DNA from: Candidatus Limnocylindria bacterium
GTDB lineage: Bacteria > Chloroflexota > Limnocylindria > P2-11E
Direction: 5' to 3'
Assembly: GCA_035708565.1 (NCBI GenBank)
Contig: DASSSF010000058.1
Coordinates: 2,704 to 66,703, forward strand
DNA: 64,000 nucleotides
Under the pieces are notes generated by a model that was not told where the DNA came from, did not search any database, and saw only the letters and a list, made by a program, of their open reading frames with translations. Below, one piece after another: positions 25,217 through 60,985 of the stretch. Position 1 is the first letter of the stretch; the number at the start of each line of letters is the position of its first letter. The position numbers and the translations under genes were made by a program.

Positions 25217-25238
25217 CGCGTCATCATCGCATCGCCAC

Positions 25239-41965: not shown

Positions 41966-43840
41966 TTAGCCGACGAGCCCGAGCGCGCGCCAGAAGGGGA
42001 TCGCCACGACGATCGCGGCGAGCCGGATCGCGAGGAGCGCCGCGCCCATGACCGTGCCCTGCCGGTCGTCGAACGCCTCGCGCCCCGTCGCCTCCCGGTA
42101 CATCAGGTACTCGAGGCCCTGGTAGGGGAGGATCCACATGTTCGCCATGAGGAGCACGACGATCCCCGCGACCCACCCGCTGATCCCGAGCGCCGGCGCG
42201 GCCGGAACGAACGCGAGGATGAGGAGGAACATCGTCGGCCTGCTCGGGAGCACGATGCGGCTCACGGCGGTGACGAGCGCGATCGCGATGACCGACACCT
42301 CCGGGCCAAGGGCCGCGACCGGCGCGATGCCGCCGGCGACCCACTTGTCGACGCCGCTCCGGCCGAGGACCTCGCCGGAGCCGAGGAGCACGCCGAAGAG
42401 GATGAGGAAGCCCCAGTCGATCCCGGTGCGGAACTGCGTCCGGTCGAGGACCGTGCCGGTGACGACGACGAGCGCGGCGAGCGCGACCCACGCGGGCTCG
42501 ATGCCGAGCGCGCGCTGCGCGGCGAGCCCCGCGATGAGCACGGCGACGGCCGCCGCCGTGACGACCTCGCCGCGGGTGATCGGACCGAGCACGGCGCGCT
42601 GGCGCGCGAGCGCGTCTCCGCGGATGGTGCCCTCGCGCTCCGGGCGGAACAGGAAGAGGAGCACGACGAGGCTGCCCGCGAAGCACGCGACGCCGACGGG
42701 TGCCGCCGCGACGAGCCACGTCGTCCAGTCGAACCGGGCGCGCTCCGCCGGCGTGAGCAGGTCGAGCAGGTAGAAGTTCGTCGCGAAGCCGGTCAGGAAG
42801 ATGTTGCTGAAGTACCAGTAGCCGATGAGGCCGGCGAAGGCGAGGCCGGCGCTGCCGCGCGAGCGCGCCTCGTAGCCGAAGGCCTGTCCGAGCTCGCGCG
42901 TCACGCGCGCGATCGCCGCCACGCGCGCGACGGAGACCGGCACGAGGGGCGTGATGACCGCTCCGCCCGCGAGGAGCGCGAGCACCTGGCCGCGGTAGGT
43001 CGCCGGGAACGCGCGGAGCGATGTGAGCGCCGCGCGGAAGAGCAGACCCGTACCGGCCATCGCCGCGGCGACGGCGAGGACGCCGAGCACGAGGAGCCAC
43101 GAGGTGCTCGTGAACCCGGCGAAGACCACGGCGGCCGGAGCGAGGCCGAGCACGCCCCACGCGGTCGCGAGCGCGACCGCGACGGCGAAGTCGGGGATCA
43201 CGTCCACGGTCCACGCGATCGACGCGCCGCCCAGGACCAGGAGCGCGTGCCAGCCCTCCGTCGAGAGGCCCGCCGGCGCCGGGAGCGCCCAGAGGAGCGC
43301 CGGCACCGCGAAGGACAGCGCGGCCGCGGCCGCGCGCCGGCGCGAGCCGCCGCGCCCCCGGGATGACGCAGTGACGACGGGCCTGCTCTCCGTGGTCGGG
43401 AGCGGCGCGCCGATGAGCCCGCGCTGCCGGCGGTCGAGGAGCTCGGCGAGGGAGCGCGCGACGACGAGCCCGACGTCGGGGCGCTCGCGCACCAGGTCCT
43501 CGAAGCGCGCGCGCGGGAGACGCCAGAGGAGCGCGTCGGTCGACGTGCGCGCGGTCGCCGTGCGGCGGTCGAGGAGCATGCCGAGCTCGCCGAACTGCGC
43601 CGGCGCTTCGACCTCGGCGACCTGGACGTCGCCGTCCTCCGACGCGATCGTGAGCGTCACGCAGCCCTGCGCGAGGAGGTAGAGCGCGTCGGCGGCCTCG
43701 CCCTCCTTCATCACGAGCGCGCCGCCCGGCACGTGCCGCTCCTCGAGCGCGCCGGCGAGCCGCGCGAGCGTCACGCGGTCGAGCCCGCTGAAGAAGGGGA
43801 CGGTGCGGAGGAGGTCCTCGGGCGCGACGGCGGAGGCTAT
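41966..43840 (-). CDS. Cyclic-nucleotide-binding domain fused to a multi-TM anion/ion-transporter-superfamily (DASS/ArsB/CitMHS-like) permease. The start is uncertain.
   Basis: In-frame reading of ORF 41966..45502. CNB 'LLRTVPFFSGLD...FGELGML...RTATARTSTDALLWRL', then about 12 TM. There is no ATG/GTG/TTG before the CNB. ATA at 43840 overlaps the upstream TAG stop (ATAG). Confidence 0.7.
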   Translation of the reverse strand: MASAVAPEDLLRTVPFFSGLDRVTLARLAGALEERHVPGGALVMKEGEAADALYLLAQGCVTLTIASEDGDVQVAEVEAPAQFGELGMLLDRRTATARTSTDALLWRLPRARFEDLVRERPDVGLVVARSLAELLDRRQRGLIGAPLPTTESRPVVTASSRGRGGSRRRAAAAALSFAVPALLWALPAPAGLSTEGWHALLVLGGASIAWTVDVIPDFAVAVALATAWGVLGLAPAAVVFAGFTSTSWLLVLGVLAVAAAMAGTGLLFRAALTSLRAFPATYRGQVLALLAGGAVITPLVPVSVARVAAIARVTRELGQAFGYEARSRGSAGLAFAGLIGYWYFSNIFLTGFATNFYLLDLLTPAERARFDWTTWLVAAAPVGVACFAGSLVVLLFLFRPEREGTIRGDALARQRAVLGPITRGEVVTAAAVAVLIAGLAAQRALGIEPAWVALAALVVVTGTVLDRTQFRTGIDWGFLILFGVLLGSGEVLGRSGVDKWVAGGIAPVAALGPEVSVIAIALVTAVSRIVLPSRPTMFLLILAFVPAAPALGISGWVAGIVVLLMANMWILPYQGLEYLMYREATGREAFDDRQGTVMGAALLAIRLAAIVVAIPFWRALGLVG

Positions 43841-44748
43841 GCGCCCTCGCGGCGCTGGACATGGCGCGGATCCAGCGCGTCCCGAAGGCCGTCGCCGATG
43901 AAGTTGATCGAGACGACCGCGAGGAAGATCGCGAGCCCTGGGAAGACGGCGAGCCAGGGGGCCTTGTCCATGTCGCTCGTCGCGTCGCGCAGCATGTTCC
44001 CCCACGACGGCGTCGGCGGCTGGATGCCGAGGCCGAGGAACGACAGCGTGCTCTCGCTGATGATCGCGCTCGCGACGCCGAGCGTCGCCGCCACGATGAT
44101 CGGGGCGAGCGAGTTCGGCAGCAGGTGGCGCAGGATGATGCGCCGGTCGCCCGCGCCGATCATCCGCGCCGCGACGACGAACTCGCGCTCCTTGAGGGAC
44201 AGGAACTGCGCCCGCACGAGGCGCGACGTCGTCATCCAGGAGAGCAGCCCGAGGACGATCACGACCACGGTCACCGTCATGCCCTTGAAGAAGACGCCGA
44301 AGAGGATGAGCAGGAACAGGCGCGGGAAGGAATACATCATGTCGACGAGCCGCATGAGGACGGAGTCGATCCAGCGCCCGTAGTACCCCGCGACCATCCC
44401 GACGAACGTCCCGAACGAGATCGCGACCGTGACCGCGAGGAACCCGACCGCGAGCGAGACGCGGCCTCCGTAGAGGATGCGCGTCGCGAGGTCGCGCCCG
44501 AGGCTGTCCGTGCCGAACGGGTGCACCGGCGACGGCGGCTCGTAGATGTCGAGGAGCCGCGTGCGCTCGGGGTCGTACGGCGAGACGAGCGGCGCGGCGG
44601 CGGCGAGCAGCGCGAGCGCGACGAGCACGAAGATGCTGACGAGCGCGAGGCGGTGCGCCATGAACCGCTCCGCAGCCAGCCGCCACTGGCTTCGCGGCTT
44701 CGCGACCGGTGCCGCGAGGGCTCCTGGCTTGAGAGCGATGTCCGCCAT
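43837..44748 (-). CDS. Peptide ABC transporter permease (DppC/OppC-like)
   Basis: 303 aa with the 'EFVVAARMIGAG' EAA loop. Confidence 0.9.
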   Translation of the reverse strand: MADIALKPGALAAPVAKPRSQWRLAAERFMAHRLALVSIFVLVALALLAAAAPLVSPYDPERTRLLDIYEPPSPVHPFGTDSLGRDLATRILYGGRVSLAVGFLAVTVAISFGTFVGMVAGYYGRWIDSVLMRLVDMMYSFPRLFLLILFGVFFKGMTVTVVVIVLGLLSWMTTSRLVRAQFLSLKEREFVVAARMIGAGDRRIILRHLLPNSLAPIIVAATLGVASAIISESTLSFLGLGIQPPTPSWGNMLRDATSDMDKAPWLAVFPGLAIFLAVVSINFIGDGLRDALDPRHVQRREGA

Positions 44749-48139: not shown

Positions 48140-48466
48140 GTGCTCCTGCTCGAGACACGCGGCAGGAAGAGCGGCGAGGCGCGCCGCACGCCGGTGTACT
48201 TCGTGCGCGACGGCGCCGACGTGATCGTCGTCGCGTCGAACTGGGGCCGCGACGACGATCCGGCCTGGTACCGCAACCTCATGGCGCGGCCGGACGACGC
48301 CGCGATGGTCGTCGACGGGCGGCGCACGGCGGTGCGGCCCGAGGCCGTCGCGCACGCGGACCGCGAACGCGTCTGGAAGGCCGCGGACGCCGCGTACCCG
48401 CAGTACGCGGACTACCGCAAGTGGACGCGGCGCGAGATCCCGCTCGTGCGCCTCATGCCGCGCTAG
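48140..48466 (+). CDS. Deazaflavin (F420H2)-dependent nitroreductase-family (DDN-like, PPOX-class split barrel)
   Basis: 'LLLETRGRKSGEARRTPVYFVRDGADVIVVASNWG...PAWYRNL...YPQYADYRKWTRREIPLVRL' is the DDN family pattern. The homologous N-terminus continues in-frame upstream to about 48040 with no canonical start. Confidence 0.75.
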   Translation: MLLLETRGRKSGEARRTPVYFVRDGADVIVVASNWGRDDDPAWYRNLMARPDDAAMVVDGRRTAVRPEAVAHADRERVWKAADAAYPQYADYRKWTRREIPLVRLMPR

Positions 48467-49587
48467 GCGGGTGCCCGCTCCTTCAGCGCGATCACGTTGA
48501 ATGCCGGGATCGGACGCGTGAGGCCCTTGAGCTCGAGATCCGGCAGGCGCTCACACTCGACCTGATCCTCGACCGCGGCGTGCACGCGCTGGCTGATCAC
48601 GATCTGGCCGTCCTTCGCCTGCCCCGCGAGCCGCGCGCCGAGGTTCGTGACCGCGCCGACCGCTCCGTAGTCGAAGCGGCCCTCGAAGCCGATCCGCCCG
48701 AGCGTCGCGTACCCGAGCGAGATCCCGACGCCGAAGCCGAGCGTGTAGCCCTTCTTCTTCCACGGCCGCGAGATCTCGCCGAAGCGCTCGCGCATCGCGA
48801 CGGCCATCCGAACGGCCCGGAGCGGCGCGTCCTCCTGCGTGATCGGGTCGTTGAAGAACGTCATGAACCCGTCGCCGGCGAAATGCTCGAGCGTGCCCTC
48901 GTGCCGGAACACGAGCTCGCCCATCGCCGCGTGGTACGTGCGGAGGACGGCGAGCGCCTCCTCGGGCTCGGAGGTGTCGGTGAAGGCGGTGTACCCGCGC
49001 AGGTCGCAGAACGCGACCGTGATCTCGCGCCGGTGCGGCTCGAGCGCCGACTCCGCGCCCTGCGACGTCACCATCTCCGCGATCTGCGGCGACAGGAAGT
49101 GGCGGAGCCGGCCGAGGCGCGCGAGCTCGTCGACCTGGTCGCGCACGCGTGCCTCGAGCGTCTGGTTCCAGTGCTCGAGCTCGCCGCGCTGGCGCTCGAC
49201 CGTGTCGTGGTACCGCTTCACGCGCAGGAGCGAGCGCACGCGAGTGAGGAGCTCGGTCTGGTCCCACGGCTTCGGGAGGAAGTCGTCCGCGCCGGCCTCG
49301 ACCGCCTTCTTCTTCTCCGGCAGGTCGCTCGCCGTGACCATGACGATCGGCAGGAACTGCGTCGCGGGGTCCGCGCGGACGCGGCGGCAGACCTCATAGC
49401 CGTCGATGCCGGGCAGCATGATGTCGAGGAGGACGAGGTCCGGCTTCTCGGTCAGCACCTTGAGGAGCGCGTCCTCGCCCGTCGCCGCCGTGACGACCGT
49501 GTAGCCCTGCGGCGCGAGGACGGCCTCGAGGAGCCGCAGGTTCTGCGGCACGTCGTCGACGGCGAGGATCTTCGCGGGCTCGGTCAC
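48463..49587 (-). CDS. Response regulator (receiver domain) fused to class III adenylate/guanylate cyclase
   Basis: REC 'ILAVDDVPQNLRL...LVLLDIMLPGIDG'. CHD 'ITVAFCDLRGYTAF...FAGDGFMTFF'. Confidence 0.9.
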   Translation of the reverse strand: MTEPAKILAVDDVPQNLRLLEAVLAPQGYTVVTAATGEDALLKVLTEKPDLVLLDIMLPGIDGYEVCRRVRADPATQFLPIVMVTASDLPEKKKAVEAGADDFLPKPWDQTELLTRVRSLLRVKRYHDTVERQRGELEHWNQTLEARVRDQVDELARLGRLRHFLSPQIAEMVTSQGAESALEPHRREITVAFCDLRGYTAFTDTSEPEEALAVLRTYHAAMGELVFRHEGTLEHFAGDGFMTFFNDPITQEDAPLRAVRMAVAMRERFGEISRPWKKKGYTLGFGVGISLGYATLGRIGFEGRFDYGAVGAVTNLGARLAGQAKDGQIVISQRVHAAVEDQVECERLPDLELKGLTRPIPAFNVIALKERAPA

Positions 49588-49955
49588 GCCCGCAGGTAGC
49601 CTCGCACCTGGTCGGGGAACACCTTGATGTCGATCGGCTTCGCGATGAAGCCGTCGAAGCCCGCCTTGTCGAAGCGCTCGCGGTCGTTCGCCATGACGGA
49701 GGCGGTGAGCGCGACGACGGGGATCTTCGACGTCGCGGCGTCCTTGCGGATCCGCTCGAACGCGGTGATCCCGTCGATCCCCGGCATCTGGATGTCCATG
49801 AGCACGAGGTCGGGCTGGTGCTCGCTCGCCATGCGGATCCCGGTCTCGCCGTCCGTCGCCTCGACGGTGCGGAAGCCCGCGAACCGGAGCACGTCGCGCG
49901 CGAGCTTCATGTTCTTCTCGTTGTCCTCGACGATGAGGATCAGCTCGTTCGCCAT
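49584..49955 (-). CDS. Single-domain CheY-like response regulator
   Basis: 123 aa with 'LILIVEDNEKN...LVLMDIQMPGIDG...KPI'. Confidence 0.9.
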   Translation of the reverse strand: MANELILIVEDNEKNMKLARDVLRFAGFRTVEATDGETGIRMASEHQPDLVLMDIQMPGIDGITAFERIRKDAATSKIPVVALTASVMANDRERFDKAGFDGFIAKPIDIKVFPDQVRGYLRA

Positions 49956-52900
49956 CTACCTCTTCGCGTCCCCCTTCAAGAGCGGCAGCGCGAACGTGAA
50001 GGTACTGCCCTTGCCGACCTCGCTGTCGACCCAGATACGCCCGCCGTGGAGCTCGACGAACTTCTTCGAGAGCGTGAGCCCGAGGCCGGTGCCCTCGCGC
50101 GCACGGCCCTCGCTCGTCGCGGCCTGGTGGAACTCCTCGAAGATCTTCTCGCGCTCGGCCTCCGGGATCCCGATGCCCGTGTCGTGCACGGCGACGCGGA
50201 CCTCGCCGTCGTCGCGATGTGCCTCGACCGCTACGTGGCCGCCGTCCGGCGTGAATTTCACGGCGTTCGAGAGGAGGTTGTAGACGATCTGTTTTACCTT
50301 CCGCTCGTCCGCGCGCACGCGGTCGACCTTCCCTCTGACCCTGAGGTCGACCTTGATGCCGTGCCGCGCGGCGCGCTCGCGCACCATCGTGACGCCGTTC
50401 TCGAGCGCCTCCTTGAGCGAGAACTCGCCGACTTCGAGCTCCATGCGGCCGGCCTCGACCTTCGAGAGGTCAAGGATGTCGTTGATGAGCGAGAGGAGGT
50501 GCCGACCCGACGAGAGGATGTCCTCGAGGTACTCCTTCTGCCGCGCGTTGGGCTCGCCGAACATGCCCTGCGCGAGGACCTCGCTGAAGCCGATGATCGC
50601 GTTGAGCGGCGTGCGCAGCTCATGGCTCATGTTCGCGAGGAACTCGCTCTTGTGCTGGTTCGCGAGCTCGAGCTGGCGCGACTTCTCCTGCGTCTCGCTG
50701 AAGAGGCGCGCGTTCTCGATTGCGATGACCGCCTGGTCCGCGAAGGTCTCGACGAGCCCGATCTGCTCACGGCTGAACGGCCGCGGCTCCGTCCGCCACA
50801 TCGCGATGACGCCGAGCGCCTTGCCCTCGTGCAGCAACGGCACGGAGAGGAGCGTCCGGAAGCCCCCCAGCTTCTGCGCGTCCAGGTACGTGTAGGTCTC
50901 GTCGGTGAGGACGTCGTGGATGTGGACCGTGCGACGCCCGATGAACGCGCGGCCGGTGGACGACCCCGCGTCGTCCGCCGCGATCGGATGCGCTCGCTGC
51001 CACTCGTGCATCACCTCGGCCTTCGTGCCGATGGCGGCGACCATCCGCAGGACCGGCCCCTCGGCGCGGTAGATGAAGCCGTTCTCCGCGCCGGCCAGGC
51101 GCGTCGCGTGCGCCACGACCGTGTTGAGCACGCCCGCGAGGTCTAGGCCCGAGCTCGTGATCTGGTTCAGGACCTCGGCGGTCGCGGTCTGCCGCGCGAG
51201 GGCGTCCTTCGTCTCGTTGAAGAGGCGTACGTTCTCCATCGCGATGGCGGCCTGATCCGCGAACGTCTCGACCAGGCGCATCTCCCGCTCCGTGAACGGA
51301 CGCACGTCGGTGTGGAAGACCATGAGCGTGCCGATCGCGCGGCCCTCGCGCATGAGTGGCACTGCGAGCCGTGTCAGCGGACCGTCCTGGGGCAGCTCCG
51401 GCCGCGTGCGCACATCCGCCACGTACTGCCGTCGCCCTGTGCGGATGCTGAGCGCGGCCAGCGTGGTGCCGCCGAGGCGCGCGTAGCCGGGGCGCGGGCT
51501 CCCGTCGGGCAACGCGGGGGCGAAGAGCGGGCCGTTGCCGGCGAGCCAGCGGATCTCATCCCCGTCGACCCGTCCGAGCTGCGCCGAGTCCGCGCCGCTG
51601 AGCGCTACCGCACGCTCGACGATCGTCTTGAGGACCGTGTCGAGGTCGAATGCCGAGCGGCTGATCGATGCGAGCACATCGGCGACCGCCGTCTGCTGCT
51701 CCAGCGCCTCTCTCGTCTCATTGAACAGGCGCACGTTCTCCATCGCGATCGCGGCCTGGTCGGCGAAGGTCGTCACGATGGCGACGTCGGCGTCCGTGAA
51801 CGGCTGCACGTGCGTTCGCCAGAGCGACAGCACGCCGACGACGCGGCCATCTCTCAGCAGCGGCACGCCGAGCATCGACCGCAGGTTGCCGACGCGCTGG
51901 TGCTCGCGCAGCGCGTAATCGGGATCGGCGCTCGCGTCGTCGATGCGGACCGCGCGACCCTCGGCCGTGACGCGTCCGGTCAGGCTGCCGCGGTCGTTCG
52001 GGGCGATCGGATGCTCCTCGTTCAGCCGGCGCAGCTCCTCCGGGATCTCGTACCCCGCGGCGATGCGCAGGAAGCCGTCGTCGTCCACGCGGTAGATCAC
52101 GCCATGCGCGGCGCGGCACAGCCGCGCCGCGCGCTCGATCACCGTGTTGAGGAGCGTCGGGAGATCGAAGGCGGAGCGTCCGATGGCGGCGAGCACCTCG
52201 CTGACGGCGGTCTGCTGCTCCAGCGCGTCCCTCGTCTCGTTGAAGAGGCGCACGTTCTCGATCGCGATGACCGCTTGATCGGCGAACGTCCGCAGGAGGT
52301 CGAGCTGCCGGTCGGCGAAGGGACCTGGTACGGAGCGCCGGAGCAGGATCGCGCCGATCGCCTTCCCCTCACGCATGAGCGGCATCGCGGCGGCGGCGCG
52401 ATGACCCGTTCGCCTCGCGAACTCGAGGGTGATCGGATAGTCGGCCGCGGCTGACGGTTCCTGGATGTCGGGGACGTGGACGAGCGCTCCGTCGACGATG
52501 GCGCGTCCCGTCATCGACGTGCGGTCCACGGGCCAGACCGCCTCGCGCTCCGCGTAGACGGGCCCCTCGTGTGCGACGGCGCGGAAGTGCCGGCCTTCGA
52601 CGAGGAGGACCGCCGCGTCCTCGGCGCCACAGAAGCGCACCGCGTTCCGGGCGATCGCGTCGAGCACGGGCTGGTCGCTCGTGGGCGAGCCCGCGATGGC
52701 GCGGAGGACCTCACCGGTCGCGGTCTGTCGCTCGAGCGCCTCTCTCGTCTCGTTGAAGAGCCGCACGTTCTCGATCGCGATCGCGGCCTGGTCCGCGAAC
52801 GTGCGGAGCAGCCCGATCTGCTTCTCGGTGAACGGGCGTACCTCCGTCCGGCGGAGCGTGATCGCGCCGAGCGGAACGCCTTCCCGGAGGAGCGGCGCGG

Positions 52901-55865
52901 CGAGGACCGTCCGCAGGCCGAGCTCTCGCGCGCCGCGCACGCCGGTCGGCCACTCCTCCTCGCTCTCGGCGGCCATGTCGTGCACGTGGATGACCTCCCG
53001 GTCGACGATCGCCCGGCCACGGACGGAGCCGCGGTCGATCTTCCACGGCGGGAGCGACCGCGCGATCGGGCCGTGCCGGGCGACCTGCTCGAAGAGGCCG
53101 TCGGCCCGGATGAGCCCGACGCCACAGTCCTCTGCCGCGCAGTAGCGGGCCGCGCTCCGCGCGATCGCGTCGAGCACGGGCTGGATGTCGCCGGGGGAGC
53201 TCGAGATGACCTGGAGGATCTCGCTGATCGCGGTCTGCTGCTCAAGCGACTCCTTCGTCTCGTTGAACAGCCGTACGTTCTCGATCGCGATCACCGCCTG
53301 GTCGGCGAACGTCCGGGCGAGGTCGATCTGCCGCTCGGTGAAGGGGCGCACCTCGGCCCGCCGCATGACGATCGCACCGACGGCCGTGCCCTGGCGGAGC
53401 AGCGGCGCGGCGAGCGTCGTGCGATGCCCGAACTTCGTCGCGAGCTCCTGGGTGCGCGGGTACGTGTCGTCCGCGAGCGGATCCTCGACCTGGAGCACGC
53501 GTGACTCGAGGATCGCCCGCCCGGCGATCGCTCCGGGCTCGATCGCGACGACCGTCGGGCGGGCGCTGTCGTGGCCGGAGACGATGGTCCCCGCGTGCGC
53601 TCGGGACACGAGCCGATCACCCTCGCGCAGCAGCACGATCACGTCCTCCGCGGCGCAGAACCGCTGCGCGCTCTCCGCGATCGCGTCGAGGACCGGCTGG
53701 AGCTCCGTCGGCGACGTGGACATGACGCGGAGGATCTCGGCGGTCGCGGTCTGCCGCTCGAGCGCCTCCTTCGTCTCGTTGAAGAGCCGGACGTTCTCGA
53801 TCGCGATCGCGGCCTGGGCCGCGAGCTGCTCGACGAGCCCCACCTCGCTCTCCCTGAACCCGCCGGGGCGAGCTCGGCCGAGGCGGATGGCGCCGATCGG
53901 CTGGCCGTCCTGGAAGACAGGCACCGAGAGCCGACTGCGGCTCCACGTCTCGTGCTCGGGCTGCGCCCCTTCCATGAGCGACGCGTCCGTGGCGAAGTCC
54001 GGGGTCTGGTGCGATCGGCCGTCGAGGATCGCCCGCCCGGGCAGCGTGCCGAAGTCCAGGCCGAACCTCCAGCCGAGCGGGACCCCTTCCGGCGGCGGCG
54101 GCCAGTTGCCGGCGCGCGCCTCGCTCAGGATCTCTTGACCGGCCCTGCGGTAGAACGCCGCCTGCTCCGCGCCGCACAGCCGCATCGCCGCTTCGAGGAT
54201 CACGGTGAGGACGGGCGCGACATCGCCCCGGGCCGCGGCGATCGCACTGTGGATCTCCGCCGTGGCAGTCTGCCGCTCGAGGGCGGCCTTGGTCTCGTTG
54301 AACAGACGCACGTTCTCGATCGCGATCACCGCCTGGTCGGCGAACGTCCGGGCCAGGTCGATCTGCCGCTCGGTGAAGTGGCGCACCTCGGCCCGCCGCA
54401 TGACGATCGCGCCGACCGCGACACCTTGGCGCAGCAAGGGGGCCGCGAGCGTGGTGCGGTGGCCGTACCGCTCCGCGAGCTCGCGGGAGCGCGGGTACGA
54501 GTCGTCGGCGAGCGGGTCCTCCACCTGAAGGACCTGCGACTCGAGGATGGCGCGTCCGGCGATGGCTCCGGGCTCGATCGTGACGACAGTGGGGCGGGCG
54601 CTGTCGAGGCTTGTGACGATGGTCCCCGCGTGCGCTCGGGACACGAGCTGATCGCCCTCGCGCAGCAGCACGACCACGTCCTCCGCGGCGCAGAACCGCT
54701 GCGCGCTCTGGGCGATCGCGTCGAGGACCGGCTGGAGCTCCGTCGGCGACGTGGACATGACGCGGAGGATCTCCGCGGTCGCGGTCTGCCGATCGAGCGC
54801 TTCGGCCAGCTCACGCCGGCGACGCACGGTCCGCTCGCCGAGCCTACCCAGCGCGACGCTGCCGGCGAGCAGCGCGGCGAGCAGCGCGACGCGCAGTGCG
54901 CGATCGACGGCGAGGGTGCGTTGGAGCTCCGCTCGTTCCGCCGCGGGATCGATCGCGGCGATCACGCGCCATCCCGTATCGCCGACCGGTGCGGCGGCGG
55001 CGATGCGAGGCGAGCGTGCGATCGGGTCGTCGCGCTCGACGGCGCCGGCAGCGGTGAGCGCTGGATCGGCCGTCAGATCCGCGCCGCTGATCGGTGGCTC
55101 GAGCGCTCTCGCGGCGAGGATCCCAGCGCCGTCCGTTAGGTACAGGTCGTCGGGCGCGGATGCGTGGGGGCGAAGCAGCTCGGCGAGCGGTGCGTTGGTC
55201 ACTTCGACGACGAACGCGCCGGCGAACGGCGTGAGCCCACCCGGGATCGGCGCGACCATCTGGATCGCGGGTCCGGCGCTCGGGCCGACCGATCGTTCTA
55301 CGTACCCGTACTCAGGCCTGCCAGACGATGGCCCGCCTGCCGTCGCCAGGCGTTTCGCGCGGAGGAATGTGGGCAGGTCCGTCACGGCGGGCCCCGGGAT
55401 CCGGCCTGCGCCCGTACCTCCTGCACCCTGTCCCCCAGGGCCAGATCCAACGCCTGCGCCGACGCCGACCGGCCGACCGTCGGCGTCCACGAACCACATG
55501 CTCGAGCCGCCAGCGTCCAGTCGCGCCCCGCCGACCGGACGGAGCGCGCGCAGTGTTGTCTCGAACGCGCGCTCGAGAGTCGCCGTGTCGCGCGCGGTCA
55601 CCGCCGCCCGGACCACGGGATCGTTCGCGGTAACGAGCGCGATGTTTCCGATCTCGCGGAGCCAGGCGTTCGCGACACCCGCGCCGCGGCGTGCCGACTG
55701 CTCCGCTCGCTCCCGCAGCGACGCCTCGAGACGCTCCTTCGCGTCGGCAGCCGCCACCTCGTCCAGTACGGCGATCGGCAGCGCGATGACGAGCGCGGTG
55801 AGCAGTGGCACGTACCACCACCGCGCGAACAGGCGCTCGACGACAGGCGCGAGCTCCCGGCGCAA
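49956..55865 (-). CDS. Giant sensor histidine kinase (1969 aa): TM, extracytoplasmic sensor domain, TM, eight tandem GAF domains, HisKA, HATPase_c
   Basis: Eight 'ENVRLFNET(K/R)...LE(R/Q)QTA(T/V)...' linker-GAF units. H-box 'FLANMSHELRTPLNAI'. G-boxes 'HDTGIGI', 'GTGLGLTL'. Confidence 0.9.
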   Translation of the reverse strand: MRRELAPVVERLFARWWYVPLLTALVIALPIAVLDEVAAADAKERLEASLRERAEQSARRGAGVANAWLREIGNIALVTANDPVVRAAVTARDTATLERAFETTLRALRPVGGARLDAGGSSMWFVDADGRPVGVGAGVGSGPGGQGAGGTGAGRIPGPAVTDLPTFLRAKRLATAGGPSSGRPEYGYVERSVGPSAGPAIQMVAPIPGGLTPFAGAFVVEVTNAPLAELLRPHASAPDDLYLTDGAGILAARALEPPISGADLTADPALTAAGAVERDDPIARSPRIAAAAPVGDTGWRVIAAIDPAAERAELQRTLAVDRALRVALLAALLAGSVALGRLGERTVRRRRELAEALDRQTATAEILRVMSTSPTELQPVLDAIAQSAQRFCAAEDVVVLLREGDQLVSRAHAGTIVTSLDSARPTVVTIEPGAIAGRAILESQVLQVEDPLADDSYPRSRELAERYGHRTTLAAPLLRQGVAVGAIVMRRAEVRHFTERQIDLARTFADQAVIAIENVRLFNETKAALERQTATAEIHSAIAAARGDVAPVLTVILEAAMRLCGAEQAAFYRRAGQEILSEARAGNWPPPPEGVPLGWRFGLDFGTLPGRAILDGRSHQTPDFATDASLMEGAQPEHETWSRSRLSVPVFQDGQPIGAIRLGRARPGGFRESEVGLVEQLAAQAAIAIENVRLFNETKEALERQTATAEILRVMSTSPTELQPVLDAIAESAQRFCAAEDVIVLLREGDRLVSRAHAGTIVSGHDSARPTVVAIEPGAIAGRAILESRVLQVEDPLADDTYPRTQELATKFGHRTTLAAPLLRQGTAVGAIVMRRAEVRPFTERQIDLARTFADQAVIAIENVRLFNETKESLEQQTAISEILQVISSSPGDIQPVLDAIARSAARYCAAEDCGVGLIRADGLFEQVARHGPIARSLPPWKIDRGSVRGRAIVDREVIHVHDMAAESEEEWPTGVRGARELGLRTVLAAPLLREGVPLGAITLRRTEVRPFTEKQIGLLRTFADQAAIAIENVRLFNETREALERQTATGEVLRAIAGSPTSDQPVLDAIARNAVRFCGAEDAAVLLVEGRHFRAVAHEGPVYAEREAVWPVDRTSMTGRAIVDGALVHVPDIQEPSAAADYPITLEFARRTGHRAAAAMPLMREGKAIGAILLRRSVPGPFADRQLDLLRTFADQAVIAIENVRLFNETRDALEQQTAVSEVLAAIGRSAFDLPTLLNTVIERAARLCRAAHGVIYRVDDDGFLRIAAGYEIPEELRRLNEEHPIAPNDRGSLTGRVTAEGRAVRIDDASADPDYALREHQRVGNLRSMLGVPLLRDGRVVGVLSLWRTHVQPFTDADVAIVTTFADQAAIAMENVRLFNETREALEQQTAVADVLASISRSAFDLDTVLKTIVERAVALSGADSAQLGRVDGDEIRWLAGNGPLFAPALPDGSPRPGYARLGGTTLAALSIRTGRRQYVADVRTRPELPQDGPLTRLAVPLMREGRAIGTLMVFHTDVRPFTEREMRLVETFADQAAIAMENVRLFNETKDALARQTATAEVLNQITSSGLDLAGVLNTVVAHATRLAGAENGFIYRAEGPVLRMVAAIGTKAEVMHEWQRAHPIAADDAGSSTGRAFIGRRTVHIHDVLTDETYTYLDAQKLGGFRTLLSVPLLHEGKALGVIAMWRTEPRPFSREQIGLVETFADQAVIAIENARLFSETQEKSRQLELANQHKSEFLANMSHELRTPLNAIIGFSEVLAQGMFGEPNARQKEYLEDILSSGRHLLSLINDILDLSKVEAGRMELEVGEFSLKEALENGVTMVRERAARHGIKVDLRVRGKVDRVRADERKVKQIVYNLLSNAVKFTPDGGHVAVEAHRDDGEVRVAVHDTGIGIPEAEREKIFEEFHQAATSEGRAREGTGLGLTLSKKFVELHGGRIWVDSEVGKGSTFTFALPLLKGDAKR
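53290..53830. repeat. Direct repeat copy B (GAF3-coding) of an internal duplication within the kinase gene. About 90% nt identity to 54320..54830.
   Basis: Compared by eye: for example, 53641..53800 is nearly identical to 54670..54830. Confidence 0.7.
54320..54830. repeat. Direct repeat copy A (GAF1-coding), partner of 53290..53830
   Basis: The protein segments 'ERQTATAEILRVMSTSPTELQPVLDAIA(Q/E)SAQRFCAAEDV...' are about 90% identical between GAF1 and GAF3. Confidence 0.7.
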
Positions 55866-55985: not shown

Positions 55986-58127
55986 ATGGCCGAGCCGGAG
56001 GGGATCTGGGAGACGCTGCGGCAGCGGCTCGACTACGCCTCGTTCGTCCCGCGCCTCGTCCCCGATCTCGTGCGCTCCGACCTGCGCACGCGTGCGGGCG
56101 AGCCCTACGTCGTCATCAAGAACCCCCACGGCGACAAGGGCGCGGGCACGTACCTCCGCCTCGAGGCCGCGGACGCGGCGCTCCTCGAGCTGATGGACGG
56201 GAAGCGCACGATGCAGGAGATCCTCGTCGAGCACCTCGAGCGGACCGGCTCGTTCGCGCTCGACCGCCTCGCGCGGCTGACGAGCGCCCTGCGCATGAAC
56301 GGCTTCTTCGGCGAGGAGCCGCCGCTCGTCTACGAGAAGCTCCGCGCGCGCCGCCGTCCGCTCCTCGACCGGCTCTCTCTGCTCATGCGCCGGCTGATCC
56401 TCTGGGACGTCGCGCGGTGGGAGAACGCCGAGGCCGTGGTCGACGTCGTGTACCGCCTCGGCGGCCGGCTCTTCTTCACGCGGCTCGGCGCCCTCGTCGC
56501 GGTCGCCTTCAGCGCGTACGGCCTGTGGCTCTGGGCGCAGGAGGTCCGCGCGCCGCGGCACGACCTCGTGAGCCAGGACGGCTCGTACACGCTCGGGATC
56601 CTCATCCTCGTCGTGCTCCAGGTGATCTCGATCTCCGTGCACGAGGCGGGGCACGCGCTCGCGATCCGCCACTACGGCCGGCGCGTGCGTCGGCTCGGCT
56701 TCGCGATCTACTACCTCTTCCCGTGCTTCTACGTGGACGCGACGGACATGACGCTCGCGTCGCGCCGCGAGCGCGTGGTCGTGTCGCTCGCCGGTCCCGT
56801 CGGGGGGCTGCTCACGGCGGCGGTCTGCGCGGTCGTGACCGCCACCGCCGGCGACTCGCTCGCGGCCTCCCTCGCGTTCAAGGCGGCGAGCCTGTTCGTC
56901 TTCCAGTTCTTCCTGAACCTGCTGCCGATCCTCGACCTCGACGGCTACAACATCCTCGTCGACGCGCTCGACATCCCGCTGCTGCGCCAGCGGGCGGTCG
57001 GCTTCGTCCGCGGGCGCGCGATCCGCAAGATCCGCCGCCGCGAGAAGTGGACGCGCGGGGAGGTCGGCCTCGCGGCGTTCGGCGGCTCGGCGATCCTCAT
57101 CTCCTTCCTCATGCTCTTCATCGCGCTCTGGCTGTGGCAGACGCGAGTGCAGGCCGCGACCAGCGAGCTCGTCGCGATCGGGCCCGTGGGACTCCTCGGC
57201 CTCGCCCTCATCGTCCTCGTCTTCGTCGGTCCGCTGCTCGTGGCGCTCGCGGGCCGCGTGCTCGGGCTCGGCCGCGTCGCGACGAGGTCGTTCACGTCGC
57301 GCCGCCGGAAGGCGAAGCAGCTCGAGATGGAGGAGCGGATCACGACGCTCGGCCGCATCCGCTTCCTCAACGGCCTCCCGCGCACCGCGCTCGCCGCCAT
57401 CGCGTCGCACCTCGAGGTGCACGACGTGGAGGCCGGCGAGGCGGTCTTCAGCGCGGGCGACGTCGGCGACCGCTTCTACATCGTCCGCTCGGGACGCGTC
57501 GAGGCGGTCTCGCCGGAGGGGCAGGTGCTCAACGTGATCATCCCGGGCGAAGGCTTCGGCGAGCTCGCGCTCCTCGACCGCGCGACGCGGAGCGCGACCG
57601 TGCGCGCGACGGAGCCGACGGTGCTGTGGTCGCTCGACCGCGGCCACTTCGAGCGCTGGGTCGCGGAGCGCTACGAGATCGCCGCGCGGATCCGCGCGTC
57701 GCGCGAGGAGCGCGACCGGCTCGTGCGCCTGCCCTTCTTCAGCGGGCTCTCGCGGCAGCAGCTCGAGCGGATCCTCCCGCGCATGCGCACCGTCCGAGCG
57801 AGCGCGGGCGAGGAGGTCGTGCGCGCCGGCGAGCCCGGCGACAGGTACTTCGTCATCCATACGGGGACGGCGCGCGTGACGCTCCCCGACGGCACGCACG
57901 TGCGCGACCTCGGACCGGGCGACGGCTTCGGCGAGCTCGCGCTCCTCTTCGGCGGCCCGCGGACGGCGACCGTGACCGCCACGAGCGACATGACCCTCGG
58001 CGCCCTCGGCCGTCGCGACTTCGCCGAGCTCGTGAAGCAGTCGGGCGAGACCGCCGGCACGTTCCGCCGGCGCACCGCGCACTATGTCGGCGCCGGCATC
58101 GGTGCCACGGTGGCGAGGGGGTCGTAG
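55986..58127 (+). CDS. Multi-domain membrane protease: N-terminal PqqD/RRE-like domain, site-2-protease (M50) domain with HEXXH 'HEAGH', and two cyclic-nucleotide-binding domains (713 aa)
   Basis: 'YLRLEAADAALLELMDGKRTMQEILVEHL' matches the PqqD pattern (xLNxTAxxIWxLLDGxRTxxEI). TM helices surround 'VHEAGHALAIRHYG' and a later 'DLDGYN' (LDG). Two CNB domains 'FGELALL...RSATVRA' and 'FGELALLFGGPRTATVTA'. Confidence 0.85.
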   Translation: MAEPEGIWETLRQRLDYASFVPRLVPDLVRSDLRTRAGEPYVVIKNPHGDKGAGTYLRLEAADAALLELMDGKRTMQEILVEHLERTGSFALDRLARLTSALRMNGFFGEEPPLVYEKLRARRRPLLDRLSLLMRRLILWDVARWENAEAVVDVVYRLGGRLFFTRLGALVAVAFSAYGLWLWAQEVRAPRHDLVSQDGSYTLGILILVVLQVISISVHEAGHALAIRHYGRRVRRLGFAIYYLFPCFYVDATDMTLASRRERVVVSLAGPVGGLLTAAVCAVVTATAGDSLAASLAFKAASLFVFQFFLNLLPILDLDGYNILVDALDIPLLRQRAVGFVRGRAIRKIRRREKWTRGEVGLAAFGGSAILISFLMLFIALWLWQTRVQAATSELVAIGPVGLLGLALIVLVFVGPLLVALAGRVLGLGRVATRSFTSRRRKAKQLEMEERITTLGRIRFLNGLPRTALAAIASHLEVHDVEAGEAVFSAGDVGDRFYIVRSGRVEAVSPEGQVLNVIIPGEGFGELALLDRATRSATVRATEPTVLWSLDRGHFERWVAERYEIAARIRASREERDRLVRLPFFSGLSRQQLERILPRMRTVRASAGEEVVRAGEPGDRYFVIHTGTARVTLPDGTHVRDLGPGDGFGELALLFGGPRTATVTATSDMTLGALGRRDFAELVKQSGETAGTFRRRTAHYVGAGIGATVARGS

Positions 58128-58131
58128 GTAG

Positions 58132-58347
58132 ATGGACTGTTTCATCTGCGAGAAGACGGCGGTCGGCGCGTGCCGCTTCTGCGGCCGCGGCGCCTGCCGC
58201 GAGCACGCCCGGACGCACCCGTTCCTCCTGGACGTCTTCCGGGGAGACCGGCACAAGGTCCTGCGGGCGCTCGTCGTCGAGGACGCGATCCACTGTGGCG
58301 TCTGCAAGCCGAGGGGCGAGCCCGTGGAGCTTCCTGAGCTCGAGTAG
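58132..58347 (+). CDS. DUF2180-like Cys-rich zinc-ribbon small protein (71 aa)
   Basis: 'CFICEKT...CRFCGRGACREH...HCGVCKP' gives 8 Cys. It lies 4 nt after the protease stop, so it is translationally coupled. Confidence 0.65.
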   Translation: MDCFICEKTAVGACRFCGRGACREHARTHPFLLDVFRGDRHKVLRALVVEDAIHCGVCKPRGEPVELPELE

Positions 58348-58472
58348 GCCGTCTCTGTAACGCCGGCTTCCCTCGGAGGTCGGCGCGATGACGCTCGGGC
58401 GTGCCCGATCCCATCGACCGCCGCCGCGGACGCGCGCAGGGTCCGCCCTAAGACGAGCATGGAGGTAGGGCG

Positions 58473-58832
58473 ATGAGCGACAAGATGGACGTGAGCGGGA
58501 GCGTGGCGACGGGCAAGGCGCTCGACGACGTCCGGCTCGGGGCGGCCATCCCCGCCGGGGACCCCACCGCCGTGTCGGCGGCGGAGGCGTGGCCGGAGCA
58601 CGCGCTGGCTCGGCTGAACGAGGCGCAGGGGGCGGCGGAGCTCGATGCCTCTGCGGCGGCCCAGTGGCCGGAGCACGCGATCACGCGCGTCTCGGCGGCG
58701 GAGGCCGGGTCCCGCGAGGGCGACGCGTACCTGACGGCGGACGAGGCCGGCCGCGACGCGGGCACGGAGTCCCTGGCCGACGACCTCGTGATCGTCGACG
58801 TGCCGGTGTGCGAGCAGTCACTCGAGCTCTAG
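58473..58832 (+). CDS. Small acidic hypothetical protein (119 aa) with an internal 'WPEHA' duplication and a C-terminal 'GDAYLTADEAGRD' motif
   Basis: GGAGG SD 8 nt upstream. Followed by an intrinsic terminator. Confidence 0.55.
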   Translation: MSDKMDVSGSVATGKALDDVRLGAAIPAGDPTAVSAAEAWPEHALARLNEAQGAAELDASAAAQWPEHAITRVSAAEAGSREGDAYLTADEAGRDAGTESLADDLVIVDVPVCEQSLEL

Positions 58833-58844
58833 GAACGGGCCCGA

Positions 58845-58883
58845 GGGAGCGGTCGAGCGGAAGACGCGGACCGCTCCCTTTTT
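58845..58883 (+). terminator. Rho-independent terminator (stem gggagcggtc/gaccgctccc, 14-nt loop, TTTTT)
   Basis: Perfect 10-bp GC-rich inverted repeat plus a T5 run 12 nt after the stop of 58473..58832. Confidence 0.75.
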
Positions 58884-59043
58884 CGTCGCCGGCGGCGTAC
58901 AGTTCGCGCTTCGCAAGGGCAGGGGAGGGAAACGTTCGAAGGATCACAGTCCAGGCGTTCGCCGGCCGAACGTTGCCGCGCGCGTCCGGGAGGACGCTTC
59001 CCCCCAACAGCCCGGTAGGGCGAAAGGAACGGTTCAGGGAGAT

Positions 59044-60249
59044 ATGAGCAAGCAGGCACTAGGGCAGGTCGTGCAGCGCGCGATCAGTGACGCCGCCTTC
59101 CGGCGTCAGCTCCAGAGCGACCCGACGGGCGCGCTCAAGGGCTTCGACCTCACGGCGGACGAGCGCGCGGCGCTCCGCGCCGGCGACGCGTCCAAGCTCT
59201 CCTCGCTCGGCGTCGACCAGCGCATGAGCAAGGCGTTCGCGCTCGGCGAGGCGAGCCAGGTCTCGCGGGCCCCGAGCGCCGACACGCGTCTCGCCTCGGC
59301 GACCGACGGGGGCGGATCCGACAACGCGGAGGCAGGGATCTGGGGCGACCAGTCCGGCGCGCGCGCGGCCTCGGCCTCGGACGCGACGAGCGACTCCCAG
59401 GCGCGCCTCGCGGACATCGACGCGAAGATCAGCGGCATCCCGAGCGGCACCGAGAACTGGCGCGCGGCCGACGTCGAGGGCTCGCCGGAAGCGGCGCGCT
59501 CCGCGATGGACGCCGCGGCGGGCAGCGACTCCCAGGCGCGCCTCGCGGACATCGACGCGAAGATCAGCGGCACCCCGAGCGGCACCGAGAACTGGCGCGC
59601 GGCCGACGTCGAGGGCTCGCCGGAAGCGGCGCGCTCCGCGATGGACGCCGCGGGCGGCAGCGACTCGCAGGCGCGTCTCGCGGACATCGACGCGCGCTTC
59701 AACACGGCCGACGCCGCGGACGGCAGCGACTCGAGCGCCGGCACGGCGTACGTGACGGCGGACGAGGCCGGCCGCGACGCGACCGGCATCGCGGGCGGGC
59801 GTCCGCTCTTCGCGACCTCGAGCGCCGAGGCCCAGGACGGCTCCGGCGGCAGCTTCTCGATCTCGGCCGACGAGCAGGGCCGCGGCGACGCGACGGCGGT
59901 CGCGGGCAGCGACTCGAACGCGACCTCGGCGCAGATCACGGCGGACGAGTTCGGCCGCAGGGCCGCGGCTTCCGCCGGCGACAGCGACGCCGCGGGCGGC
60001 ACGGCGTACATCACGGCCGACGAGGCCGGTCGCGACTCCAGCGCGCTCCGCTCGAGCGACGTGGCTGCCCGCGAGGGCGACGCGTTCCTCACGGCGGACG
60101 AGGCCGGCCGCGACTACGTCCCCGAGGGCGGTTCCCTCTCGCGCAACATGGCGACGGACTCGGCGGACATCCAGCGCGAGATGCTCGAGGGCGGCAGCGG
60201 TGGCGGCTCGCCCGAGCACTCGAGCGACGGACCCGAGATCCAGCCCTAG
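59044..60249 (+). CDS. Acidic repeat protein (401 aa) with an NHLP/Nif11-type leader-like N-terminal domain, 45-aa tandem repeats and recurring 'A[YF][LVI]TADEAGRD' motifs
   Basis: N-terminal 'ALGQVVQRAISDAAFRRQLQSDPTGALKGFDLTADE' matches the nitrile-hydratase-leader-peptide pattern (A..D..F(K/R)..L..DP..AL). 'aggga' SD. No signal peptide. Confidence 0.7.
   Translation: MSKQALGQVVQRAISDAAFRRQLQSDPTGALKGFDLTADERAALRAGDASKLSSLGVDQRMSKAFALGEASQVSRAPSADTRLASATDGGGSDNAEAGIWGDQSGARAASASDATSDSQARLADIDAKISGIPSGTENWRAADVEGSPEAARSAMDAAAGSDSQARLADIDAKISGTPSGTENWRAADVEGSPEAARSAMDAAGGSDSQARLADIDARFNTADAADGSDSSAGTAYVTADEAGRDATGIAGGRPLFATSSAEAQDGSGGSFSISADEQGRGDATAVAGSDSNATSAQITADEFGRRAAASAGDSDAAGGTAYITADEAGRDSSALRSSDVAAREGDAFLTADEAGRDYVPEGGSLSRNMATDSADIQREMLEGGSGGGSPEHSSDGPEIQP
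59392..59700 (+). repeat. 135-bp tandem repeat x about 2.3 (copies 59392..59526 and 59527..59661 differ at about 3 nt; a diverged partial third copy follows) inside CDS 59044..60249
   Basis: Read directly from the sequence. It encodes '..DSQARLADIDAKISG(I/T)PSGTENWRAADVEGSPEAARSAMDAA(A/G)GS'. Confidence 0.85.
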
Positions 60250-60310: not shown

Positions 60311-60985
60311 TTAGTAGCGGATGTCCTTCTGGAGGGCCGCCGGGTCGAGGATCTCGATGTGGCGGCGGCCGATGCGGATCGCGTTCCGTTTTTCGAGGTC
60401 GGCGAGCGCCCGGTTCACGGACACGCGCGTCGCGCCGACGAACGCGGCGAGGTCCTCCTGCGTCATGTCGAGCTGGCGCTTCCCGCCCGAGAGCTCCGAG
60501 ATGTCGAGGAGGCACTTCGCGACGCGGCCGCCCAGGTCGAGGAAGACGAGGTCCTCGACGCGGCCGCTGGACCGGCGAACCGTGCGCGCGAGGTGGGCGA
60601 GCATCTCGCGCATCGCGGCCGGGTAGCGCTCGAGCGCGGCGAGGAAGTCCTGCCGGCCGAGCGTCAGCACCTCGGTCTCGGTGATGGCCGTGACGGTCGC
60701 CGACCGCGGCGCGTCGTCGAACAGCGCGAGGTCGCCGAAGATGTCGCCGCCGCGCTGGATGCCGACGACGACCTCGCGACCGTTCTCATCGGGGAGCGAG
60801 ATCTTCACCGTGCCGGCGACGATCACGAAGAGGTGCGCCGCGGGGTCGTCGCGGTGGAAGATGACCTCGTCGCGAGCGAAGCGCCGCGGCCGCATGCGTC
60901 CGGCGAGCGCGACGCGCTCGTGCGGAGGCAGGGCGGCGAAGAGCGGCGTGATCGAGAGGTGCTCGGCGAGCGCGTTCGTGTCCAT
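60311..60985 (-). CDS. Crp/Fnr family transcriptional regulator (cNMP-binding + C-terminal HTH)
   Basis: 224 aa with 'GDIFGDLALF...RSATVTA' and HTH 'MTQEDLAAFVGATRVSVNRAL'. Confidence 0.9.
   Translation of the reverse strand: MDTNALAEHLSITPLFAALPPHERVALAGRMRPRRFARDEVIFHRDDPAAHLFVIVAGTVKISLPDENGREVVVGIQRGGDIFGDLALFDDAPRSATVTAITETEVLTLGRQDFLAALERYPAAMREMLAHLARTVRRSSGRVEDLVFLDLGGRVAKCLLDISELSGGKRQLDMTQEDLAAFVGATRVSVNRALADLEKRNAIRIGRRHIEILDPAALQKDIRY

Follow-up and report, generated by a model that had tools for sequence, protein, structure and literature searches.

A protease joining a RiPP recognition element, an M50 core and tandem cyclic nucleotide-binding domains is encoded with a leader-bearing acidic protein in Limnocylindria

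Which substrate might an intramembrane protease serve when it combines a recognition element for leader peptides with two cyclic nucleotide-binding (CNB) domains, and when a leader-bearing acidic protein is encoded just downstream? The question arises from four genes located between positions 55986 and 60249 of a 64-kb stretch of DNA from a soil Candidatus Limnocylindria bacterium (Chloroflexota; contig DASSSF010000058.1), the whole of which is hereafter called the window. All on the forward strand, these genes encode a 713-aa protease composed of a recognition element (RRE) for peptides that are synthesized by ribosomes and modified after translation (RiPPs), an M50 core and two CNB domains (55986..58127), a 71-aa Cys7His zinc ribbon (58132..58347), a 119-aa acidic protein with one AYLTADEAGRD motif (58473..58832), and a 401-aa leader-bearing acidic repeat protein (59044..60249). 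Comparative genomics supports the existence of a functional module at this locus. Judging from the sequences, its most likely function would be that of an RRE-directed leader protease of the adjacent acidic protein, modulated by cyclic nucleoside monophosphates (cNMPs), a reading to which we assign a probability of about 0.6.

The four open reading frames (ORFs) lie where a first-pass annotation of this DNA had placed them, and the four-gene arrangement is confirmed. Their frames display a GC content at third codon positions (GC3) of 0.93-0.98, the same as that of the adjacent genes with strong family matches, and the alternative overlapping frames do not show such a pattern in this sequence of 72 % GC. 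The signals described between the genes are present as well: the protease stop codon and the zinc-ribbon ATG are separated by only four nucleotides (GTAG), the 119-aa ORF follows after a 125-nt gap and is led by a Shine-Dalgarno sequence (GGAGG, 7 nt upstream), and the 401-aa ORF has its own (GGGAG) upstream.

The three-part architecture proposed for the 713-aa protein is recovered by Pfam, structure modelling, Foldseek and the motifs of the phosphate-binding cassettes (PBCs). Its N-terminal domain (residues ~21-110; 56046..56315, forward strand) is an RRE of the PqqD-like winged-helix type at the fold level, as the AlphaFold model (22 homologues) reaches a pLDDT of ~90 over residues 21-110 with a beta-beta-beta-alpha-alpha-alpha order, and Foldseek agrees with this fold. 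The PqqD call did not hold at the sequence level for the window protein, however: PF05402 gives no match at E<=1 against the 713 residues, and a profile of the N-terminal domain searched against the PDB sequences returned only noise. PqqD is detected at the same position in distant homologues (21 bits in P0186; PF05402 precomputed on P0339, P0361, and P0363). The domain is followed by a polytopic M50/site-2 protease (S2P) core with ~6 transmembrane (TM) segments (56463..57281, forward strand), delimited by motif positions, hydropathy, model helices, and PF02163. Peptidase_M50 (PF02163) scores 34.4 bits over residues 210-300 against a gathering threshold (GA) of 27.2, and the ~6 hydrophobic segments, within residues 162-430, are helical in the full-length AF2 model. 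This even number of TM segments suggests that the RRE and the CNBs are on the same, cytoplasmic side. The motifs HEAGH (nt 56640-56654, residues 219-223) and NLLPILDLDG (nt 56916-56945, residues 311-320), both on the forward strand, correspond to HExxH and NxxPxxxxDG, which are invariant in the protease alignment A5, and the core is predicted to have intramembrane zinc protease activity. The C-terminal part contains two cNMP-binding domains on the same strand, the first at 57381..57725 (PBC GEGFGELALLDRATRSATV at residue 521) and the second at 57753..58055 (PBC GDGFGELALLFGGPRTATV at residue 645), identified with Pfam and a regular expression for the cassette. Both copies of PF00027 (cNMP_binding) are above GA, with 146 bits together, and both cassettes (FGELAL...R[ST]ATV) are intact, including the conserved Glu and Arg. 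The regular expression finds the two cassettes retained in 104 out of 120 protease homologues, and the tandem resembles the PKA regulatory subunit.

The counterpart of this protease is the 401-aa protein, whose gene has a GC3 of 0.96 and whose composition is acidic (D+E 16 %, K+R 8 %) and devoid of Cys. Its residues 1-69 (59044..59250, forward strand) form a leader domain of the nitrile-hydratase-leader-peptide (NHLP) clan, NF038399/PF14407-like, ending in ...LGVDQRMSKAFALGE. The NF038399 profile ('Os1348 family NHLP clan protein') is matched over its full length by residues 4-62, with 62.3 bits for a cutoff of 40. The leader had been described as fitting the NHLP/Nif11 pattern; the membership of the NHLP clan stands through NF038399, but TIGR03793 and PF14407 remain below threshold, and the kinship to NHLP proper (TIGR03793) and to PF14407 would thus be at the clan level only. 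In ECOD, PF14407 is grouped with the Nif11, NHase-alpha, and LigA-like leader domains (PMC12353581). A search with the leader alignment mostly returned short read-level fragments; 53 distinct sequences made up the family comparison. In these proteins, the leader is ~80-90 % conserved until ...LGVDQRMSKAF, usually followed by x-x-GG, and conservation then collapses. The bodies vary from 120 to 480 aa, are rich in A, G, D, S, and T, with 12-18 % D+E, 0.6 % Lys, and no Cys, and contain no TM or hydrophobic segment (maximum KD19 1.2).

The body of the window protein is built of repeats, as had been noticed. A 135-nt unit (SDSQARLADIDAKISG..VEGSPEAARSAMDAA) is present 2.3 times in tandem at 59389..59694 (forward strand; TRF, 97 % matches), and five [ST]AD[EQ]xGR motifs occupy 59740..60114 on the same strand (regular expression at residues 238, 274, 299, 324, and 350), for which TRF reports a 39-nt array. 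Counted with the pattern A[YF][LVI]TADEAGRD, the 401-aa protein has three exact and two degenerate copies and the 119-aa protein has one, in line with the earlier count. As a hallmark of the system, this motif does not survive the family comparison. Only four of the 53 leader proteins carry TADE[AM]G, and other subclades carry other acidic motifs, such as DEG[QE]L (14), GDDWKF (14), and HDDP[DN]GF (12); TADEAGRD is therefore a local feature rather than a signature of the system. VEGSPE is found in 21/53, the window protein included, and a C-terminal box, DSAD[VI]QRE[ML]L (60157..60186, forward strand; invariant columns of alignment A1), in 9/53. The last residues of the leader proteins vary (P, S, A, T, G, and others). 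Among L001-L091 and in the window (59251-60249), recurring C-termini were observed, namely ...PEI[QST][PA], ...PNITP, ...GQ[IL]TP, ...HHEPDIPT, ...GGHPS, and ...DEHSWG, suggesting that the tail is functionally constrained. In addition, some loci have two or three tandem leader paralogues with differing acidic bodies (L059, 4601-7732; L075, 5161-6718), and in the former the Crp gene is located between the paralogues.

The association of these genes is conserved. We compared 91 loci with a protease homologue, the counts being restricted to those with sufficient downstream DNA. Among related loci, the protease gene is directly followed by the zinc-ribbon gene in 79 of 79, downstream of the protease all 70 Limnocylindria-type loci encode an acidic protein with a leader, and a Crp-family regulator is present on the opposite strand in 39 of the 41 loci with at least 3.5 kb of downstream DNA. 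In L008, where wholly different genes lie upstream, the four genes are still together and Crp is retained. The window protease is identical to a protein of a Candidatus Limnocylindria (Chloroflexota) metagenome-assembled genome, and 392 protease homologues of ~710 aa display an identical architecture at 60-70 % identity, under generic database names ('cyclic nucleotide-binding domain-containing protein' or, at JGI, 'putative peptide zinc metalloprotease protein'). Within the class, the module resembles a part of the core genome that is passed on vertically. An exact-sequence look-up of contigs with the window protease had no result, and of the three loci listed by a contig search with this single protein, one, L007, was set aside as an unrelated small M50 protease.

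The pairing also recurs at a larger distance. An exhaustive search with the RRE and M50 part (clusters at 50 % identity, E<1e-30) retrieved 275 clusters, with alignments extending across almost all of this part. We examined ten of the clusters, and tandem CNBs are present in many of them. Three length classes can be distinguished: bare RRE-M50 proteins of 430-490 aa, RRE-M50-2xCNB proteins of 700-760 aa, and proteins of ~1100 aa with an insert and two CNBs. The protease family, whose database annotations are merely generic, ranges over Chloroflexota, Actinomycetota, Acidobacteriota, and Thermodesulfobacteriota, with named distant members in Solirubrobacterales, Anaerolineae, other Chloroflexota, Acidoferrales, Thermodesulfobacteriota, and Acidimicrobiia. 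In other Chloroflexota, in Acidimicrobiia, and on a forest-soil contig without taxonomic assignment, proteases with 33-37 % identity are encoded beside NF038399 peptides of 68-88 aa; these distant partners score 48-59 bits on NF038399, and relatives and distant partners together 48-61 (cutoff 40). In L092 (Chloroflexota) an NF038399 peptide, 78 aa long, comes after the protease, and in L095 (Acidimicrobiia) the divergent peptide, of 68 aa, is beside a haem-oxygenase-like gene. A third locus, L093 (9211-12141), encodes in this order the protease, the zinc ribbon, an M16 peptidase, an extracytoplasmic function (ECF) sigma factor, a 152-aa protein, and an 88-aa NF038399 peptide. The protease/zinc-ribbon and the protease/NHLP-clan-leader pairs, which recur in other lineages with proteases of such low identity, are thus both older than Limnocylindria, and it is the very long acidic 'core' that is unusual in this class. 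The pairing of the protease with a leader-bearing protein is found both within the class (70/70) and outside it (L092, L093, and L095).

The 71-aa partner had been described as a DUF2180-like ribbon with eight Cys. It has seven, the eight ligands conserved among four aligned homologues being C3, C6, C14, C17, C22, H25, C56, and C59, so that His25 completes the set. The DUF2180 profile (PF09947) reaches only 17.1 bits on residues 1-28, below its GA of 22.2, and the other Pfam matches, C5HCH and B-box, are also sub-threshold; on the L093 homologue DUF2180 scores 20.7 bits, again below GA. This L093 ribbon, also of 71 aa, is 66 % identical to that of the window, while the L093 protease is only 34 % identical. 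In L096/L097 (7001-10757), a 70-aa homologue of the window ribbon follows a protease of the 1169-aa class. The proteases of ~1170 aa of these two loci have an insert of ~400 aa before the CNBs, and an M16 peptidase is encoded 3.5 kb upstream of them.

The 119-aa protein, whose gene has a GC3 of 0.97, must be separated from this conserved set. It matches no Pfam or NCBIfam family, has no leader, and has no homologue in any of the 70 related loci. A 47-nt stretch of its gene is 96 % identical to the 401-aa gene, and the motif copy common to the two proteins is identical at 14 of 15 residues. Because of this shared stretch and the absence of homologues, it is, on these comparisons, a lineage-specific duplication product and not a conserved substrate. 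The lack of a leader and of orthologues rules it out as a second, conserved substrate, and of the two acidic neighbours proposed as substrates only the leader-bearing one is retained. The gene is followed by an intrinsic-terminator-like hairpin at 58845..58883 (forward strand; GGGAGCGGTC...GACCGCTCCC and TTTTT), recognized from the sequence and RNA folding, in agreement with the terminator reported there: a 10-bp GC stem precedes T5, and the fold has -33.9 kcal/mol with z = -2.0. A simple promoter and terminator scan found no promoter and also missed this hairpin, in the latter case because of its loop length.

Given an RRE on the protease, an NF038399 leader on the adjacent protein, and genes that travel together, we favor a mechanism in which the RRE would dock the ~65-aa leader of the acidic protein, as modelled on the RREs of the lasso-peptide, PQQ, and daptide pathways. 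The membrane HExxH/NxxPxxxxDG site would then cut near the leader/core boundary, at residues ~65-70, after ...GVDQRMSKAF-x-x-(GG), and this cut would release a long, Cys-free, acidic, repeat-rich, and disordered body. Binding of cAMP or cGMP to the two CNBs may modulate the access to the protease or its activity. The same nucleotide could act on the convergent Crp, in which case transcription and processing would follow one signal; in this genome, the signal might come from the divergent operon leading from a GAF kinase to a receiver-cyclase. The translationally coupled 71-aa zinc ribbon could be a dedicated subunit of the protease, acting as an adaptor, lid, or regulator.

Several observations weigh against this mechanism. 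The disordered 'core' of 330 aa is far outside the range of normal RiPP cores, and the GG at the end of the leader is not invariant, most relatives having GG and the window protein GE. On the 401-aa protein, TIGR03793 scores 12.8 bits (cutoff 50.9) and PF14407 (Frankia_peptide) 30.2 bits (GA 48), and the named protease families stay far below their cutoffs, with 139.3 bits out of 300 for NF041824 (daptide_HExxH), the best NCBIfam match, and 75.9 out of 225 for NF058609. The two partners are also found apart. In L094 and L096, no NF038399/PF14407 gene was called near the protease (within 7 kb in L096/L097), and in L094 neither a zinc ribbon nor a leader partner was found; conversely, NF038399 peptides exist without a nearby protease in L009 and L010, indicating that the leader family exists outside the protease module as well. 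These latter peptides, stand-alone and of 81 aa (P0166; L009, 275-520; L010, 1090-1335), are encoded beside RNase Y. Moreover, the Crp consensus TGTGA-N6-TCACA (with up to 2 mismatches) shows no enrichment, with 5 sites for 6.2 expected, and a Crp-type site at 58807-58822 is not significant. Finally, the 64-kb window encodes neither a tailoring enzyme nor an exporter of the C39/ABC type, and it has no gene for immunity.

This last absence, together with the gene content of L093, bears on the alternative that survives best, which we nevertheless consider rather unlikely: that the module carries out signalling proteolysis. The NHLP-type leader would then be a recruitment tag or degron, and the protease would destroy or inactivate tagged regulators when cNMP changes. 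The acidic disordered protein, at a similarly low likelihood, would be an inhibitor or sequestering factor, of Crp for instance, rather than a secreted product. Site-2 proteases classically cleave anti-sigma factors, and the L093 operon encodes an ECF sigma factor together with the 152-aa protein, in which an N-terminus resembling anti-sigma factors (zf-HC2/NF052375-like) is fused to an NF038399/PF14407-like domain. This operon gives a hint that regulators may be among the proteins tagged by the leader; if the leader is a recruitment tag on them, the system would be a signalling protease and not one of product maturation. A transcription factor, Crp, is fixed in the Limnocylindria module, neither exporter nor tailoring genes accompany it in the window, and the acidic, Lys-poor, and Cys-free bodies are like those of DNA-mimic or intrinsically disordered regulators. 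However, the anti-sigma and NF038399 matches of the 152-aa protein fall short of their curated cutoffs (36.9 bits for NF038399 and 22 for PF14407, with the full profile covered), this is the only such locus among those compared, and the window contains no sigma/anti-sigma pair. Binding of the acidic protein to Crp is conjectural, and hypervariable repeat bodies that occur as two or three paralogues resemble products under diversification more than they do a conserved regulator. Somewhat less doubtful, though still less likely than not, is the broader idea that leader/RRE recognition was co-opted for signalling, with a cNMP-gated intramembrane protease and its obligate zinc ribbon processing leader-tagged proteins. 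Its substrates would be the acidic disordered proteins in Limnocylindria and the anti-sigma-like fusion in L093, and it would constitute a pathway, hitherto undescribed, that links a second messenger with regulated proteolysis, alongside Crp.

A canonical RiPP or bacteriocin cluster is improbable. In that case, the TADEAGRD-type units of the 401-aa and 119-aa precursors would be excised, and perhaps modified, into small peptides, as in the multi-core cyanobactin or graspetide precursors, with modifying enzymes perhaps encoded elsewhere. The leader does belong to the NHLP clan, the definition of PF14407 stems from a survey of peptides modified by ATP-grasp enzymes (PMC8939145), the repeated motif has Thr and Asp/Glu like the cores of graspetides, precursors are present in several copies at some loci, and the nearest named families of the protease are RiPP leader peptidases. 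Nevertheless, no ATP-grasp (the ligase by which a graspetide would be recognized), radical-SAM, YcaO, LanM, or other tailoring enzyme was found in the window or in L001-L011, and exporters are missing as well from the 64 kb and the related loci. With immunity genes also absent from the 64 kb and the related loci, the locus is therefore not a canonical RiPP cluster in its gene content. Furthermore, the repeat motifs differ between subclades and are not flanked by repeated protease recognition sites, and the module is inherited vertically, as described above.

It is more improbable still that the acidic proteins are unrelated neighbours and that the protease acts on other, unlinked substrates. 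The 119-aa protein is indeed unconserved, and some distant protease homologues have no nearby NF038399 gene, but the co-occurrence in 70/70 loci, the persistence of the pairing when the flanks change, and its recurrence at 33-37 % identity argue against chance proximity, as does the precedent of an RRE and an NHLP-clan leader forming a matched recognition pair. The least probable alternative is an anti-phage system of the Pycsar/CBASS type, in which a cyclase would make a cyclic nucleotide on infection and the CNB membrane protein would be the effector. PADLOC detects on the window a Pycsar similarity at the domain level only, limited to generic domains (CNB and class III cyclase). The cyclase is receiver-fused, under a histidine kinase, and absent from most loci, the synteny of the module is with housekeeping genes throughout the class, and Pycsar offers no counterpart of the RRE, of the NF038399 partner, or of Crp.

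The genes surrounding the module display a further connection with cNMPs, to which the first-pass annotation had pointed. The convergent regulator at 60311..60985 (reverse strand) is of the Crp/Fnr family, with CNB and HTH_Crp_2 domains (Pfam/NCBIfam). Divergent from the protease, on the reverse strand of the window (48463..55865; Pfam), an operon encodes a histidine kinase with multiple GAF domains (49956-55865), a receiver (49584-49955), and a class III cyclase fused to a receiver (48463-49587). This operon is syntenic in L001, L003, L004, and L011 but is not upstream in L008 and in most metagenome loci. It is thus accessory, being adjacent only in a subclade, so that the conserved part of the proposed cNMP context is Crp. 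In sum, novelty, the role of the 119-aa protein and TADEAGRD, and the link to the GAF kinase/cyclase had all been overstated. The kinase itself (reverse strand, 1969 aa) has ~9 tandem GAF modules with nearly identical linkers, and its relatives (787-1635 aa) vary widely in the number of these modules, suggesting rapid expansion and contraction via recombination. Two large class III cyclase-AAA_16-TPR proteins of the STAND type are encoded elsewhere in the window (35940-39077, forward strand; 17245-20544, reverse strand), bringing the cyclases within 64 kb to three with the receiver-cyclase. An additional CNB-like stretch lies near 43382-43843 (reverse strand), and an ORF of 810 aa at 23072-25504 (reverse strand) has a coding-type GC3 of 0.96 and no Pfam match at E<=1e-4.

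The cNMP-modulated leader protease that we favor has its closest described counterpart in MpaP, the daptide leader peptidase, in which an RRE is fused N-terminally to an intramembrane site-2 protease in an RRE-dependent system (10.1101/2023.03.08.531785). The arrangement of an N-terminal RRE and an M50 core is the same, many bare RRE-M50 relatives exist, with lengths of 430-490 aa, and residues 51-414 of the window protease align to positions 23-372 of the 379 of the NF041824 profile. In contrast, the window contains none of the MpaB/C/D/M genes (DUF-RRE, oxidative decarboxylase, aminotransferase, and methyltransferase), and its precursors have neither the invariant C-terminal Thr nor the ELExMEAP leader of the daptides. 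The window protease adds to the MpaP plan two CNBs, a zinc-ribbon partner, NHLP-clan leaders, and very long cores. EpeP/YydH-LiaK and the pearlin TglG/TmoG are also RiPP-associated membrane M50 proteases, processing a precursor encoded nearby (PMC10885120). Residues 204-330 of our protease match the LiaK model (NF058609), but the window has no radical-SAM epimerase and no partners of the TglHI type, and none of MpaP, EpeP, or TglG/TmoG has been described with CNB domains.

With the NHLP/Nif11 systems, the module shares the leader superfamily, as NF038399 is labelled NHLP clan. A protein with two CNBs, TIGR03896 ('bacteriocin-type transport-associated protein'), is annotated beside leader-peptide systems of this kind, and its similarity to the protease CNBs is weak (36-57 bits, below the cutoff of 161). 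Here, however, an M50 protease carries the CNBs as a fusion, and they do not form a separate protein beside a C39-ABC exporter; no exporter is present in the window, TIGR03793 stays below its cutoff, and the leader ends in GE.

Regulated intramembrane proteolysis offers a second comparison. SpoIVFB, with its ATP-binding CBS domain, and RseP/RasP, which act on anti-sigma factors, are site-2 proteases of such pathways. The likeness lies in an S2P core fused to a cytoplasmic small-molecule sensor, in proteolysis as a signalling step, and in the sigma/anti-sigma-like pair of the L093 operon. The differences are that the sensor is here a tandem CNB, not a CBS or PDZ domain, and that the substrate would apparently be chosen through the RRE and the leader, not through a TM segment after site-1 cleavage.

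If the favored mechanism is correct, this would be the first site-2 protease with an activity tied to cAMP or cGMP and also the first leader peptidase of the RiPP style to be controlled directly by a second messenger. A protease and a leader-tagged substrate without tailoring enzymes would be a simple pair in which to follow RRE delivery to an intramembrane active site, and the module could yield a ligand-switchable leader protease for RiPP engineering. The long, hypervariable, Cys-free acidic bodies may be indicative of a new class of disordered proteins that undergo processing in soil bacteria of high abundance. The RRE-M50-CNB fusion had been proposed as novel in its entirety; the RRE-M50 part is known from MpaP, whereas our literature search found no description of the fusion with CNBs. 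In comparison with these known systems, the RRE-M50-2xCNB proteins with their zinc ribbon constitute a widespread, cross-phylum, and uncharacterised family, and what is new in it is only the CNB extension, the zinc-ribbon partner, and the long acidic cores.

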